Source: Dictyostelium discoideum (lineage: Eukaryota). From it: 64,000 bases of DNA. Made by a program: the position numbers and the translations under genes. The stretch covers positions 64,001-128,000 of the forward strand of contig CM000151.3 of NCBI GenBank assembly GCA_000004695.1, read 5' to 3'. Positions 16,257 to 28,642 of this stretch are shown here, piece by piece. The notes below the pieces were generated by a model. That model worked only from the letters and a program-made list of their open reading frames with translations, was not told where the DNA came from and ran no database searches. How positions within the stretch are numbered: the stretch's first letter is position 1; every line of letters begins with the position of its first letter.

Positions 16257-19014
16257 TTATTGTTTACTTTTAATTTCTTCAATTGAATTTTCAATACTTT
16301 CAATTTCTTTTAATTTTGCATTATAAACTTTAGAAGTTTCATCGATTTTAGATTGTTGACGATCTCTTAAAACTTTATTTGGAATTGATGCAAAGGTTGT
16401 TTGAAGTTGTGTCAATTGTTTCTTTATAGTTTCAGATTCTTGTTGTGATTTTCTTAATAAACTAATTAAATTAATTAATTCTGTATTATCGGGTGCACTT
16501 GGTAGTGGTACTGGTGGTGGGGTTGAAATAGTTGGTTGTGAAGATGATGAAAATGAAGATGATGATGAAGCTGTTGTTGTGGTTGTTGTTGCATTTATTG
16601 TTGCATTTGTTGCATTTGGTATTAAACTTGTTGTAGTTGATAATATTGGAGAATTTGTTTGATTTGTTGATGATCCGATATTAATTTGTGGTGTGGTTGG
16701 TAGCATCTCTCCACTATTTGAAATTGAAGAAATTGGTTGAATTGATGACGATGCTTGATTAAGTGGTGATGATGTTTTACTATATATTGGTGGTGTAGTA
16801 GTTGTTGTAGTTGTAGTTGTAATTGGTGGTGTTGAAATTATTGATTGTTGAATTGGTGGAGTATTAAGTGGTTGTTGTTGTTGCTGTTGTGTTGATGTTT
16901 CAATGTTAGTGGTACTATTAGATAATGATGACGCACTTGAATTTAAATTTTGATTTGGTAAATCTTGTTGCTGTTGGCCTATTGTTATTGTTATTGTTAT
17001 TGTTATTGTTATTGTTATTGTTATTGTTATTGTTATTGGTATTATTATTATTGTTATTATTATTATTGTTATTATTATTATTATCTATTTGGATTGGTTG
17101 TGATGGGTCAGTTAGATTTTGATTATTTTGATAATCTCTATCTCTATCTCTATCTCTGTGTTCTCTATGTTCTCTTCTTCTCTTTTTATGTTCCCTGTGC
17201 TCTCCATCTCTACCTTCTCTATCACCTCTATCTCTGTGTTCTCTGTCACCTCTATCTCTGTGTTCTCTGTCACCCCTATCTCTATGTTCTCTGTCTCTAT
17301 GTTCTCTTCTTTCACTTCTATGTTTTTTCCTTTCTTCATGAGATCTTGGTGAAGTTGGTTGTGGTTGTTGTTGTGGTGGTAGTTGTGATTGTTGTTGTGT
17401 TGGTGTTGTTGGTTGTTGTAAAGGTGAAGAAGGTACACCACCAACATTAATATTAATACCACTACTACCAATACTTTTTGAAAGATCATCAGGAGATTTA
17501 AATGATGAATCCACAGTAGCAGGAGAAGAAGGTATTGGAAATTTAATTTTCAAACTAGTTGGTGTACTACCAGTTGAACTACCCATACCACCAATACTAT
17601 TACTACTATTAATTGGTTGAATTGATTGTGTTGATGATTGTAATGATTGTTGTTGTTGTTGTTGTTGAGATTGCTGTTGTTGTTGTTGTTGAGATTGCTG
17701 CTGTTGTTGTTGTTGTTGTTGTTGATTTTGATTTTGATTTTGAGTATTTACAAAGTTACTACTGAATGTTCTACTATTACTGCTGCTACTACTACTACTA
17801 CTTCTATCACTTCTTGATCTTCTATCTCTCTTTGAACTATTTGGAGATCTTTCTTTATCTAAAGGTGATCTATCAGACATTGAAATTGGTTTACTTCCAC
17901 TGAAACGAGTTAATCTATCATCATCACTAAATTCATCATCCAAATTAATCATATTCATATTATTATTATTATTAAAATTATTATTCCTATTTCTATTATT
18001 ATAACTATTATTATTATTATTATTACCAAATGATTGATAATTATTTGTAGATTTAACTTTTAGAGTTCTAATTTGATTTTCAATTTCATTATCATCTAAA
18101 CCAGATTCATCATTACTATCCATATCTTCAATAACGATTTGATCATCAGCTTTCTCTTCAAAAATAACGGGTTCTTTTGAATTTTGACCAAATAAGTCAT
18201 TACCATATTTATCCTTTAAATCTGCCAATGATACAAATTCAATCTCTTCTGAATCTGCATAACCTGGTTTAATTAATCTAACTAATTCCTCTTCAATCTT
18301 TGCTAATTCCGTAATTTTATCCCTATTATATGTTTTAAACTTTCTTTTTACTATATCTTTTGTTGCTGCTGTTAAACCTGTTTGTAATATATTATTTATT
18401 GTATTTGGTGCCGCTGTATTTGGTAATGGTGTCGTTGTGGTTGTGGTTGTAGTTGTAGTTGTATTATTATTATTAGAAGTATCCATTAAATCATCTTGGT
18501 CAGATTGTGTTGGTGGAGGTGGTGGTGGTGGTGGTGGTGGTGGATTATCATTTACAATTATCATTTGACCGATATCAGCAGTTTTATAAAAGTTTACTCT
18601 ATCAAATGTTTTATGAGATTCAACAATACATGGTAAATCAACCAAGTTTGCATTATATTCTTGATCACCAAATTTAATTTGAATTTGTCTATCATTTTTA
18701 AAATGAAAATCAACTGGAATATCCATTTGTTTTTGTTTAATCATATTTCTAACTTGATCGGCTAAATGTAATGGTAATCTAAATAAAATTTGATCCTCTG
18801 ATTCATCTGGTCTACCATATCCTTGTAATCCACCTTCAATTGGTATATTTGTTATATTATTATTATTATAGTTATAATTTCCATAGTTATTATTATTATT
18901 ATTATTACTACTAGTATAATTATTATTATTATAACTACTACTACTACTACTATAATTTCCTCCAATAGAATTTGTATTGACTTCTATAAAATCGAAATTA
19001 TTATTATTATTCAT
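16257..19014 (-). CDS. TFIID subunit TAF7 homologue with large low-complexity insertions (poly-N, poly-P, poly-Q, RD/RE-repeats). It is split between two frames at an (AAT/AAC)n run near 16960-17100.
   Basis: N-terminal TAF7 domain: ILFRLPLHLADQVRNMI..IQIKFGDQEYNANLVDLPCIVESHKTFDRVNFYKTADIGQMIIV, matching human TAF7 ...[34 protein letters not shown]. The downstream ORF 16257..16706 carries a C-terminal coiled coil, as in TAF7. The two ORFs are joined by a frame change inside a GT-free repeat. Confidence 0.65.
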
Positions 19015-20158: not shown

Positions 20159-20710
20159 ATGAAAGCTTTAATTATTATTGATATGGTAAATGATTTAGTA
20201 AGTGGTGTACTTGCAAATGAAAAATATGCAAATGAAATTATTCCATCAATTCAAAGATTAATTGAAAATGCTAGAAAGAATCCAACTGAATGGTTAATTG
20301 TTTATTCAAATGATGCACATAAAGAAGATGATAGAGAGATGAAAGTTTGGGGTAAACATGCAATGGAAGGAACTGAAGGTGCTCAAGTTATTGATTCATT
20401 GAAACCAATGGATACAGATAATGAAATCATTTCACCAAAGAGATTTTATGGTGCATTCGATTTAACAGGACTCGGTGAAATCTTTGAAAAAAGAGGTGGT
20501 GTCACTGAAGTAGTTTTAGTTGGCCAACATACTCATTGTTGTGTTAGACACACTGCATATGGTGCCTTTATGAGAGGTTATGAAATTAAAGTACCATCAG
20601 ATGGTGTTTGTGTTTTTGATGGAATTGATAATCAAGCTGCTTTAGATTATTTAAAGAATATTTATGGTGCTACCATTACAACAACTGATAATATTTTAAA
20701 TAATTTATAA
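20159..20710 (+). CDS. Isochorismatase-family cysteine hydrolase (nicotinamidase/pyrazinamidase-like)
   Basis: 183-aa single ORF. ALIIIDMVNDL (Asp of the catalytic triad), the conserved Lys region, and VLVGQHTHCCVRHTAYGAFMRGYEIKVPSDG (nucleophile Cys in the G-x-C context) are typical of the isochorismatase fold. Confidence 0.8.
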   Translation: MKALIIIDMVNDLVSGVLANEKYANEIIPSIQRLIENARKNPTEWLIVYSNDAHKEDDREMKVWGKHAMEGTEGAQVIDSLKPMDTDNEIISPKRFYGAFDLTGLGEIFEKRGGVTEVVLVGQHTHCCVRHTAYGAFMRGYEIKVPSDGVCVFDGIDNQAALDYLKNIYGATITTTDNILNNL

Positions 20711-21048: not shown

Positions 21049-22746
<1,698 letters not shown>

Positions 22747-23968: not shown

Positions 23969-26900
23969 ATGGATAAATTTAAAGATAAATTAAAAGTTCA
24001 ATCACCATCATCCAATAAAGAAGATATAAAGATTAGTTATGTTGTAAAGATAGTTAAAGTTACAGGATTACCAAAATCCAGTTATTCACCATTACTTGTT
24101 TCATGGAAAAGAGGAAGTAAAAAAGAAAATTCAGGTGAAGTTAAAACCATACCAAGAGATGGTGAAGGTGTAGTAGATCATACCATCAATTTAAATGCAA
24201 CCATTACTAAAACACCAAAAGGATTCTTAGAGAAATCTATACAATTTACTGTAAAAGAGGAGAAATTAGGTAAAAAACCAGTTTCATTAGGTTCAGTTAG
24301 TGTAAATTTAGCACAATATGCTGAAAGTAAAACTGAAAAAACTCATCCTTTCCCAATTCAAGATAAATCAAAAGTTGTTTGTAATTTATATGTAAAGTAT
24401 TTAAAAGAAAAAAAAAAAAAAAAAAAAAAAAAGATAATATAAATTAATTAATTTTTATTTATTGATAGTTATCAATTCAATCATCATGGTTAAAAGTTAA
24501 TGGTAAATCAATGGTAAAAGCAGAAGGTAATCAAAAAGAAATACTTCAAGAATTAGGTAAACAAAAGATTTCACATGAAGGTACTGATTATTTCCTTCAA
24601 ACTGAACAAGATATGAGTGAACCTGATCAAACTGATTTTGGTCATGATTCTGATGTATGTACTTAGTTTTTTTTTTTTTTTTTTATAAAATATATATATG
24701 AATATATTACTTATTTTTTTATATAATTTTTAGAATGAAGATGAAGATCATGTTGATTTTGATGATGATTCAAATGATAAATCAAATGTATCGACATTAT
24801 CAAGAAAGAGCAGTTCAGGATCAGTTGAAAAAGGTGAATCATCATCATCATCATCGACAACAATAGCAAATGGACATAATCGTACAAATAGTTCAAATAG
24901 TGTTGGTTCAAATACTACAACAACGACTACAACAACATCAAATTATGTTCCACCAGCATTAATTAAAGAGGAGTCAGAAGAAAAAGATTTAAATGCAATG
25001 ACAGCAGATTTAAAGATAAAGAAATATAAGAAACAATTGAAAACATTGAAATCGGAATTAGAGAAATCAAAGAGCCAATTCTCAACACTTTCAAAAGATC
25101 GTGATGAAAAAGTTGAAGAGATTAAAAGAATGATTGATGATATGGAGAATATTAAAGATCGTTCTAAATCCGTTGGAAATGGTGTGATCGCCGATTACAA
25201 TAACCAAATCGAGCAATTGAATAGCAAATTGACCGCAGGCAATAAGGATATTGAGAATTTGAAAATTCAATTACAACGTGAACGTAACCAATCCTCTCAA
25301 GATTCTAACCAAGTGACAGTATTACAAAATCAATTATTAACAATCAATTCACAATTGGACACTATTCGTAACGAGAATACCACATTGAATAACCAAATCC
25401 GTCAATTGGAGACCCAATTGAGAGAGTCGTCCTCAAACAAGCCTGAGGAACTTCAAAATGCTTTAGCAACCGTTCAGAATTTACATTTGGAATTGAATCA
25501 ATTACGTAGCCAATTGGCAACAACTACCGAAGAGAATAGAAGTCAATTCATTCAATTGGAACAAGAAAGATTGAAATCAAATTCAACCGAATCAAATGTT
25601 AATCGTGTTGAACAAGAAAAACTTAACCTACAACAACGTTTAGAACATTATGAACGTACAATTCATTTACAATTGGAAGACTTTGAAAAAGAAAAATTAA
25701 AAATCTCTGCTGAACTTGGTGATTTAAAAACTAAACTTTTAAATTATGAAAAATTAGAATCTGAATTAAATGAATTAAAATCAAAACAACCAACCATACC
25801 TGAAAACAACAACGATAACGATAAAGAATTAATTGAAGCACGTGATGAAATTTTACAATTAAAAGAGAAATTAAATGAAAAAGAAGATTCAATTAAATCA
25901 ACAAATGATCAATTAATTGAAATTAAAGATAAATTAATAATTAAAGAAACTGCTTTAATTGAATTACAAGATCAATTTGAACAATTGAAAAAACAAGATA
26001 ACAAAGAATTGCTTGAAGCACGTGATCAAATAGTTGAATTAAAGGATAGATTAACTCAGAAAGAAGAATCATTTAAAGAGACTGAAAATAAATTAGAGGA
26101 TAGAGCAATTGAAATTTCTGAATTGAGAGATAAATTAGCAGAAAAGGAATCAATATTAACAGATAGGGAAGAACAATTGGACCAATTGAAACAATCAATT
26201 GAAAATCAATCTTCAACAACACCAATCATATCGGATCAACAAGAATTGCTTGAAGCACGTGATGAAATCGTTCAATTAAAAGATAAATTAACTGCAAAAG
26301 AAGATTCAATTAAAGATATTGATAATCAATTAATTGAATTAAAAGATAGATTAACTGCAAAAGAATTATTATTTAAAGAGACTGAAGATCAACTTTATGA
26401 AAAATCAAATGAAATTTCAATACTTCAAGATAAGATTTCAAATTTAGAAGAATCAAATAATAATAATAATAGTAATAATAGTAATAGTAGTATTAATGAA
26501 CTTCAATTGAAATTAAAAGAATTTGAATTAAATACTTTAGATAAAAATCAAAGTTATGAAGAGAGAATTGAAAAATTAGAATTACAATTAAAAGAGAAAC
26601 AATTGGAAGTTCAATCATTACAACTTGAAATTCATAATAATGTAAAAGAAGGTGATTCAAATGATAGATTATTGAAATTGGAAGAACAATATAAAGAATT
26701 ACAAGAAAAGTTTGATAAAGTTAAAAATAAGAAAAATACATTAAAAGTATTATGTTCAAATTATAAATTAAATATTGAACAATTAGAACAAAAACAATCA
26801 ACTTTAGAATCTTCTGCAATTGCAAATCAAGATGGTTTATCCGATGAAATCGATCAATTGAAATCAAAATTAATTCATCAAACCAATGAAAATGAAATCA

Positions 26901-28642
26901 TCCAAGATGAAAATAATCAATTAAAATTACAACTCACTTCATATCAAGATGATTCAATTTCAAAACAAAATATTATTAAAGATTATCAAGAAATAATTTC
27001 AAAATTAGAACAAGAAAAAGAAGATTTAATTGAAAATAATAAAAATAATAAAAAGAATAGTGACAATAGTGATGGCCATGATGATAGTGGTGATGACGAT
27101 GATCGTTCAGCAGAAATTGAAGAATTTAAAGAAAAAATTCAATATCAAAAAGAAAAAATTAAAGCATTAAAAGAAGATTTAGAATCAAAATCTGATGAAT
27201 GGATTGATATAAAGATAAAGATGGAAGAAATTATTGGTGGTAAACAAGATGAAATTGAAAAATTACAACAACAATTACAACAAAAAGAATCATTATCATC
27301 TTTAGCTTTACCAGTTTCAAAAGATGATAATAATCAATCAAATCAAATTTTAGAAGAAGAGATTGATCAATTAAAAAGTCAAATTAAACAATTACAACAA
27401 GAGAATCTTGCAATTTCATCAGAGAAACAATTTAAAGTTCAACATCTTCAACAAGAATTAGAACAATTAAGACAAGTTAATAGTGCAAGTGCTTCACCAA
27501 GATCATCTATTGGTGGTGGTGGTAGTGGTATTGATAATCTTGATGATTTAAGAAAAGAAATGGAAGAAAATAAGAATATTGAAACATCAATTTATTGGTC
27601 AGAATTGGATTTTGATAGAAATAATATACCATTTTGTGGTACAAATGTTTGGGCAATCATTGATGGTATTGGTGGTTTAGGTAAATCTCAAAATATTAGA
27701 TTATTGAATAAGATTGTTATCTCTTTAGAGAAATCATTCTTACGTTCTGGTAATGATTGTAAATTCATTGCCTATTGGTTTAGTACTTGTTGTTATTTAC
27801 TCTCAAAATGTCATCAAGCTGGATACACTCAAGAATCTGCAAATCCAATGAAATCAGGTATTGAAATCAATGTTAATTCATTTGTAACACCTGCACCTGA
27901 AATAGGTGGTTCTTTCATTAGAGATCTTCAAGCATTGAATCTTTCAATCTATAGTAAACTATTGTCAGTCACAGAGATTAAATTGGAGAGAGTGTTAATT
28001 CCATCGGTTTACCTACCAGACTCCATCATTTTGGAAGCTCAAAAAAGTCCAATCAAAAGTTCATCATCATCTTCCTCAACCTCTCCATTAGGTAGAACTT
28101 CAGGTTCTTTACCATTTAATAATACTGGCGCTAATTCTATCAATAATCTACTCTACATTCTTGATGGTATCATTCAATTTTTGAAAGAGGGTAGAATATT
28201 CGATAGTGTTTCAAATCAATTCCTTAATCAAATCTTTTACTTTATGAATGCTCAAATCACTAATCATCTATTAAATAATCCAAAAGTTTGTACTACCACT
28301 CAAGGTTTAGAGGTTAAAATGGGTGTCTCTCGTCTAAAGGAATGGTGTTCTGCAACCCCCTACAAATCTGCCTCTCAACAATTGGATTCCTCCTTGGAGG
28401 CTTCAAATCTTTTAGTCATTGACAAAAATGTTTTCGTTGATATTGAAGCTATAAAATCAATCTTCCAAAAATTAAATCTTCATCAAATTAAACAATTACT
28501 TCAATCTTTCACTCCTGATAGTTTATCACCTGATACTATACCAACTGTATTACGAAAAGCACTCGATTCTAATTGGAGACAATCAATCGATATTAATTCT
28601 TTACCACTTTTAATTGACCAATCTAAAAAATTTAAAATTTAA
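23969..28642 (+). CDS. NT-C2 domain / long coiled-coil / DIL (dilute) domain protein. Three exons: 23969..24391, 24469..24654, 24734..28642.
   Basis: Exon 1 encodes an EEIG1/EHBP1-type N-terminal C2 (ISYVVKIVKVTGLPKSSYSPLLVSWKRGSKKENSGEVKT...SLGSVSVNLAQYAE). Introns run gtaaag..attgatag and gtatgt..tttttag, both phase 0. The central ~800 aa is heptad coiled coil with internal 60-70-aa repeats. The C-terminus (FLNQIFYFMNAQITNHLLNNPKVCTTTQGLEVKMGVSRLKEWC...) matches the myosin-V/afadin DIL cargo-binding domain. Confidence 0.75.

Follow-up and report, generated by a model that had tools for sequence, protein, structure and literature searches.

A motor-less Dictyostelium discoideum protein that joins an N-terminal NT-C2 domain to a myosin-V-type globular tail belongs to a conserved protist family

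The globular tail of myosin V is generally treated as the part of a motor that holds cargo, and the NT-C2 domain as the part of an actin or Rab adaptor, EHBP1 for instance, that sits on the membrane. A locus of Dictyostelium discoideum raises the question of whether the two can stand at opposite ends of one protein that has no motor, and, if they do, whether such a protein is an isolated case and what it might do. The locus lies on the plus strand at positions 23969-28642 of a 64,000-nucleotide stretch of contig CM000151.3 (assembly GCA_000004695.1, positions 64,001 to 128,000; hereafter the window, to which all coordinates refer). We found that it holds a single gene for a protein of 1505 amino acids (aa), in which an NT-C2 domain is followed by a long coiled coil and a complete myosin-V-type globular tail domain (GTD). 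The protein belongs to a conserved, widespread and functionally uncharacterised protist family and is not a one-off.

The two ends and the stalk between them are placed as follows.

24014-24501, plus strand: NT-C2 domain (PF10358), aa 16-152, spanning intron 1
24998-27514, plus strand: coiled-coil stalk, about aa 292-1130 (about 830 aa), poor in Pro and Gly and rich in E, K, Q, R and L
27539-28639, plus strand: complete myosin-V-type GTD, aa 1139-1505
28217-28519, plus strand: Pfam DIL core (PF01843), aa 1365-1465

The NT-C2 domain, as proposed in the initial annotation, was recovered by Pfam with 97.2 bits against a cutoff of 25.2 (E = 8.9e-28), and the match covered profile positions 1-140 of 143. 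It is N-terminal in the product, beginning at aa 16 behind a start codon that is backed by the N-terminus of an orthologue, and its region has a C2-type beta-sandwich fold in the predicted structure; no solved structure related by sequence was found for the N-terminal 221 aa. At the other end, the DIL assignment stood at the level of the profile (94.3 bits against a cutoff of 24, E = 5.9e-27), but described too little of the module, which comprises the entire globular tail of a myosin V, about 330 aa, and not just the 105-aa DIL core. The GTD matched the solved tails of MyoVa, MyoVb and MyoVc in a phmmer search of the Protein Data Bank (PDB), with the MyoVa GTD at E = 1.5e-15 over query positions 48-342 (about 295 residues). 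An AlphaFold2 model of the GTD, built from a 16-sequence family alignment, had a predicted local distance difference test score (pLDDT) of 84.6 and a predicted template-modelling score (pTM) of 0.82, with one disordered Ser-rich loop. When this model was compared with the PDB by Foldseek, the top 42 matches were all tails of class V or class XI myosins (template-modelling score 0.71 both ways, E = 6e-11); the next matches were exocyst-type helical bundles with E >0.05.

A Pfam scan of the full 1505 aa at E values up to 0.1 returned neither Myosin_head nor a kinesin motor, in keeping with the motor-less protein first described, and no IQ, CH or bMERB/DUF3585 domain. RA, FHA, PDZ and actin-binding domains were likewise absent from the product by Pfam, and its C-terminus (...QSKKFKI) carries no CaaX box. 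The protein therefore falls outside the EHBP1 family, the class V myosins and the afadin/RADIL group, a defining domain of each having been tested for and found absent.

Whether both ends are encoded by one gene matters here, since they appear as separate open reading frames (ORFs) in the six-frame list, which has two on the plus strand, 23969-24442 and 24998-28642. The interval resolves into three exons and two AT-rich GT..AG introns; with the introns removed and the exons joined in frame, the coding sequence is 4518 nt long and specifies the 1505 aa.

23969-24391, plus strand: exon 1, aa 1-141, with the ATG at 23969 and most of NT-C2; GT donor at 24392
24392-24468, plus strand: intron 1, 77 nt, GTAAAGTA...ATTGATAG, 7.8% GC
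24469-24654, plus strand: exon 2, aa 142-203, with the end of NT-C2, extra beta strands and the start of an acidic motif
24655-24733, plus strand: intron 2, 79 nt, GTATGTAC...ATTTTTAG, 8.9% GC
24734-28642, plus strand: exon 3, aa 204-1505 plus stop, with the linker, coiled coil and globular tail; in frame with ORF 24998-28642

The shorter of the two ORFs consists of exon 1 plus a read-through into intron 1; the longer lies inside exon 3. The alignment of the product with its Polysphondylium violaceum orthologue KAF2068954.1 (1484 aa) begins at residue 1, passes through both junctions and extends at least as far as residue 1460, with 50% identity over 1559 columns. The two N-termini pair (MDKFKDKLK with MDKLNDKFK); the intron 1 junction, NLY joined to LSIQSSW, is colinear with NLYLGIQSSW of the orthologue, and the intron 2 junction, GHDSD joined to NEDEDHVDFDDD (GHDSD then NEDED), is also colinear with it. 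The last 367 aa match positions 1121-1484 of 1484, that is, to the C-terminus of the orthologue, and identity in the tail reaches 69%. This colinearity across both junctions, together with the C-terminal match, excludes two separate genes. The alternative, in which the NT-C2 exon or exons and the coiled-coil/DIL ORF are two genes or have been brought together by an assembly artefact, could draw on the separate ORFs of the six-frame list; it is effectively refuted by two canonical, extremely AT-rich introns that join the parts in frame, by an orthologue that was predicted independently and is colinear across both junctions, and by dozens of proteins with the same end-to-end layout from other genomes and transcriptomes. 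The single gene supposed at the outset therefore stands. A 30-nt poly(A) run at 24403-24432 lies inside intron 1; read-through from exon 1 into this run makes the tail of the 157-aa ORF and might lead gene-calling programs to end the gene wrongly at that point. AT content is extreme across the region, the intergenic DNA is rich in homopolymers and the ORFs include poly-Asn ones, as is typical of a dictyostelid genome.

The architecture had been put forward as unusual and as belonging to no described family. We searched 1.84 billion cluster representatives exhaustively with the tail, using HMMER, and obtained 496 matches. Among the 46 large matches scanned by Pfam, all carried DIL, 34 also carried NT-C2 and two had a myosin head. 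By a hidden Markov model (HMM) of the family N-terminus, the C2 module stood at the N-terminus of 45 of the 70 matches of at least 600 aa, and at least 45 distinct 50%-identity clusters combine NT-C2, coiled coil and DIL. The claim of rarity falls with these counts. A word-indexed protein search, made with the tail alone and with the 16-sequence family alignment, returned zero matches though its collection holds relatives 69% identical in the tail, and was uninformative.

A check for orthologues in other Amoebozoa had been recommended, and the family was indeed present in four amoebozoan classes. In Dictyostelia it occurs in P. violaceum, Cavenderia fasciculata, Tieghemostelium lacteum and Dictyostelium firmibasis, and comprises at least two more members besides the orthologue: in P. 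violaceum an 862-aa member accompanies the one of 1484 aa, and another group, of about 1130-1150 aa, comes from T. lacteum and D. firmibasis. Archamoebae are represented by Pelomyxa schiedti and Mastigamoeba balamuthi, Variosea by Cavostelium, Planoprotostelium and Soliformovum, and Discosea by Balamuthia, Luapelamoeba and Vermistella; outside Amoebozoa, we found one heterolobosean (sp. BB2). Entries with the same layout include KAF2068954.1, C. fasciculata XP_004366154.1 (DFA_06780), Pelomyxa schiedti KAH3757489.1 and Planoprotostelium fungivorum PRP81448.1. Total length across the family is about 650-1545 aa, and the length of the stalk varies. Since the end domains co-occur in relatives across distant taxa, selection on the combination of NT-C2 and tail can be argued.

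Relatives are labelled in databases as 'hypothetical protein', 'C2 NT-type domain-containing protein', 'Dilute domain-containing protein' or 'DIL domain', and because entries carry only such generic labels, the combination of NT-C2, coiled coil and DIL is already catalogued but unnamed. A literature search on NT-C2 with DIL, on NT-C2 alone and on DIL in Dictyostelium found no functional paper on this architecture. The work of Zhang and Aravind from 2010 that defined NT-C2 reportedly lists fusions of NT-C2 to cytoskeleton-related domains, perhaps DIL among them. One relative, Balamuthia mandrillaris KAL6050050.1 (P0024), is labelled 'Chromatin assembly factor 1 subunit A'; it has an N-terminal NT-C2 by the family HMM and a C-terminal tail, and its label is probably a misannotation from low-complexity or coiled-coil similarity. 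Other motor-less tail layouts were also seen, namely LIM, stalk and DIL in P0029, and CH, RRM or LIM beside DIL in a single protein for each, and several long relatives had DIL as their sole detectable domain (relatives inspected: P0029, P0012, P0013, P0020, P0027, P0035 and P0056). 'Headless' myosin-V-type tails seem to form a broader protist repertoire.

If the tail is that of a myosin V, does it keep the binding site of one? Rab11 binds subdomain 2 of the MyoVa GTD (PMC5021521), and mutation of M1715, Y1719, Q1750 or Q1753 in MyoVa abolishes Rab11A binding (PMC3814135). These residues were placed in the motif GMQIRY...AAQLLQ because their spacing fits it (M+4 = Y, Y+31 = Q, Y+34 = Q), and alignments then gave their counterparts in the present protein.

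28307-28417, plus strand: counterpart of the MyoVa Rab11 pocket, aa 1395-1431, with L1395, M1399, N1428 and V1431 for M1715, Y1719, Q1750 and Q1753, respectively

The substitutions are shared by the family. The column of MyoVa Y1719 is M, L or I in 41 of 47 family tails, that of Q1750 is N in 35 of the 47, and that of Q1753 is V, I or T in 43 and Q in none; the flanking columns K1398 and K1434 are K in 42/47 and 44/47. Two myosins in the tail alignment set retain the pocket Y. The family GTD has a signature of its own, G-[FL]-x-[IV]-K-[ML] ... E-A-[AS]-N-L-L-[VI]-x-D-K, which reads GLEVKM ... EASNLLVIDK here. A pocket conserved within the family but unlike that of MyoVa suggests a family-specific ligand at the remodelled site.

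The NT-C2 end also carries conserved elements, some of them beyond the Pfam boundary.

24502-24600, plus strand: C2 extension, aa 153-185, with three more beta strands (154-158, 173-177 and 180-185) and a short helix in the AlphaFold2 model; pLDDT about 74-86
24601-24772, plus strand: acidic Ser/Asp/Glu motif, aa 186-216, TEQDMSEPDQTDFGHDSDNEDEDHVDFDDDS, spanning intron 2; defined from family alignments and predicted to be disordered (pLDDT <50)
24773-24997, plus strand: low-complexity linker rich in Ser, Thr and Asn, aa 217-291, poorly conserved between orthologues

Of the residues that do not vary among 20 diverse members, most are basic (K21, R48, K89 and K102), K51 is kept in at least 90%, and most members have a Lys-rich N-terminus before strand 1 (here K3, K5, K7 and K9). 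R48 lies in a WKRGSKK motif. The NT-C2 of Caenorhabditis elegans EHBP-1 has two basic patches (RRLRR and HRRRK), one ahead of strand 1 and one within strand 2, and needs each of them to bind membranes with phosphatidylinositol 4,5-bisphosphate (PI(4,5)P2) (PMC4894640), and the human EHBP1 NT-C2 binds PI(3)P, PI(5)P and phosphatidylserine (PMC7442826). PMI1 NT-C2 binds phosphoinositides but needs conserved flanks, its core NT-C2 alone not being membrane-bound (bioRxiv 10.64898/2025.12.30.697064). The NT-C2 of yeast Hoi1 is cytosolic on its own, and a conserved loop of it contacts Fmp27 (BLTP2).

The extension lies outside the Pfam NT-C2 boundary in the AlphaFold2 model, and its motif, W.K.NGK..VK ... 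G..Y.L.T, is kept in most family members; one subgroup (P0010, P0011, P0015, P0060 and several archamoebal proteins) is without it through a clean deletion. The acidic motif (approximate consensus SE.D..TD....SDDE...F.DDD) comes after the C2 module in nearly every member, the heterolobosean included, and its D214 is present in at least 90% of them. It could be a phosphorylation cluster or an intramolecular mask of the basic C2 surface.

Between the two ends, the long coiled coil of the initial annotation was borne out over about 830 aa: by a crude home-made measure of heptads and composition, the best-register heptad score of the stalk exceeded that of shuffled sequence. Pfam gave only weak, sub-threshold coiled-coil matches in the stalk (Fez1 and RNase_Y_N). 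The stalk is broken by a poly-N/S stretch near aa 775-795 and by an acidic stretch near aa 960-990. Three tandem repeats within it had also been reported.

25823-26002, plus strand: repeat unit A, aa 567-626; 60 aa
26003-26239, plus strand: repeat unit B, aa 627-705; 79 aa, with a 7-aa insertion relative to A and C and a longer tail
26240-26464, plus strand: repeat unit C, aa 706-780; about 75 aa, containing a 63-nt (21-aa) sub-repeat

Self-BLAST of the stalk gave the diagonal only, and the repeats were scored instead by explicit pairwise alignments with controls. They proved real: the units aligned with each other at BLOSUM62 scores of 136-153, whereas shuffled sequences reached 40-43 +/- 6-8 and comparison with 48 other stretches of the stalk never gave more than 74. 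The nested sub-repeat was found by Tandem Repeats Finder (period 63, 84% matches, 26274-26392), and its sub-units share 11 of 21 aa. The repeat peptide quoted in the initial annotation is that of unit C, except that its first residue is Q, not K. An ELLEARD motif heads every unit; none of the six orthologue clusters has it, nor do the other members checked, and the orthologue alignment is poor across this stretch; on both grounds, the triplication is lineage-specific. It had also been read as a recent expansion, which holds only in part: the copies are 75-84% identical in DNA over their first 31 codons, and the expansion is for that reason not very recent.

What might a protein so built do? 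The motor-less cargo adaptor of the initial annotation is a sensible guess. The domain homologies lean, by a modest margin over even chances, towards a dimeric, motor-less adaptor or tether, with NT-C2 on an acidic phosphoinositide membrane and the tail on an organelle receptor that is not of the Rab11 type. Two chains would associate in parallel through the coiled coil, which, if continuous, would form a rod of up to about 120 nm (about 830 aa x 0.148 nm per residue), with at least two flexible breaks. At the N-terminus, the pair of C2 modules would then engage an acidic, phosphoinositide-rich membrane through their conserved basic residues, as the NT-C2 domains of EHBP-1, EHBP1 and PMI1 do, and the paired C-terminal tails would engage an organelle-specific receptor, a small GTPase or an adaptor peptide, in the manner of myosin-V cargo binding. 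Lacking a motor, the protein would not carry cargo but would hold or place it with respect to the membrane bound by the C2 modules, or bring factors to that membrane. As the Rab11 pocket is remodelled in every member yet conserved in the family, a ligand at that site is probably not bound in Rab11/Ypt31 style. The length of the stalk appears free in evolution, in proteins of 650-1545 aa, and here would have grown by the triplicated unit of 60-79 aa. Several points weigh against such a tether. Lipid binding, dimerisation and cargo binding are all predicted from domain homology; an isolated NT-C2 is not always enough for membrane targeting, as yeast Hoi1 and the PMI1 core illustrate; the MyoVa residues that bind Rab11 are not conserved in this tail; the coiled-coil call comes from a crude measure and not from a calibrated predictor; and the parallel geometry of the dimer is assumed.

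Two other functions deserve comparison with this one. The protein could be a natural 'headless' myosin-V tail that regulates class V myosins by competing for or sequestering their cargo receptors, acting as a brake or anchor with no cargo of its own. Its GTD does have the fold of the MyoVa/b/c, Myo2 and MyoXI tails, two myosin-head proteins occur among the GTD relatives, and motor-less MyoVa tails, when over-expressed, bind Rab-positive vesicles and make them aggregate (PMC3814135). We nevertheless consider this unlikely: all four Rab11-critical residues differ, with Q1753 kept in none of the 47 family tails, which makes shared receptors at that site improbable, the family GTD carries its own conserved signature, and the NT-C2 end is conserved together with the tail, which points to an independent, two-ended function. 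The remaining alternative, which strikes us as decidedly improbable, turns on the N-terminus. NT-C2 might mainly bind protein, as that of yeast Hoi1 does with BLTP2, and recruit a partner complex to the organelle recognised by the GTD. The Hoi1 NT-C2 does not bind membranes alone and contacts Fmp27 through its conserved loop, and in the present family the conserved three-strand extension and the acidic motif could be interaction surfaces. Against this, the family-invariant residues are mostly basic and the N-terminus is Lys-rich, as expected for acidic lipids, and the NT-C2 regions of EHBP-1, EHBP1 and PMI1 bind lipids directly.

The motor-less adaptor or tether can be extended to the family at large, in a form that is speculative and that we hold to be rather doubtful. 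These proteins might be an ancient class of motor-less organelle tethers common to Amoebozoa and Heterolobosea, in which a phosphoinositide-binding C2 anchor replaces the motor ahead of the myosin-V cargo-binding tail and the cargo pocket has been re-tooled for a different ligand. An organelle (for example, contractile-vacuole, endosomal or secretory) would be held statically at a membrane across a freely evolving stalk, and the LIM-, CH- and RRM-coiled-coil-DIL sisters would belong to a wider 'headless tail' repertoire.

Three other ORFs lie near the gene and have no evident link to it.

16918-19014, minus strand: ORF with a TAFII55_N (TAF7-like) domain
20159-20710, plus strand: ORF with an isochorismatase domain
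21049-22746, minus strand: ORF with a HUN (HPC2/ubinuclein) domain, very rich in poly-Asn; the upstream neighbour of the NT-C2/DIL gene

Should the tethering function prove true, the myosin-V tail would be a free-standing organelle-recognition module, reusable for tethering, and the locus offers a tractable gene for Dictyostelium cell biology with which to ask what is recognised by a tail of the myosin-V type in which the Rab11 pocket has been replaced. Its value is limited in that the architecture recombines well-known modules and that proteins built this way, though unnamed, can already be seen in public databases; an uncharacterised version of the known NT-C2 adaptor theme will not surprise a specialist.

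Set beside described systems, the protein resembles a different one in each of its parts. The proteins KAF2068954.1, XP_004366154.1, KAH3757489.1 and PRP81448.1 have the same layout and differ in being without the triplicated ELLEARD repeat of the stalk. Afadin and RADIL of animals share a DIL-type domain without a myosin motor; their RA, FHA and PDZ domains are missing here, whereas the present protein has a whole GTD, placed C-terminally after a coiled coil. For the C-terminal half, the nearest are the class V and XI myosins (MyoVa/b/c, yeast Myo2/Myo4 and MyoXIk), in which a coiled coil likewise leads into a complete two-subdomain globular tail of the same fold, and the tail motifs YW.S, Q..Q.FY..N, G...K, EEW and DK of class V myosins recur here; unlike those myosins, the present protein has NT-C2 in place of the motor head and IQ neck, and its Rab11-pocket residues are replaced family-wide. 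For the N-terminal half, the nearest by domain layout is plant RPG, with NT-C2, a Ser-rich disordered region and a long C-terminal coiled coil, and the 'extended NT-C2' of PMI1, with its conserved flanks, recalls the extra strands predicted at aa 153-185; RPG and PMI1 are without a globular tail and come from a different eukaryotic supergroup. EHBP1/EHBP-1 (NT-C2, CH, a bMERB Rab-binding coiled coil and CaaX) shares an N-terminal NT-C2, acidic or disordered sequence after it and a distal module for organelle recognition. CH, bMERB/DUF3585 and CaaX are missing here, and the distal module is instead a myosin-V globular tail after about 830 aa of coiled coil; in the overall logic of a two-ended NT-C2 membrane adaptor, EHBP1 is the nearest described protein.

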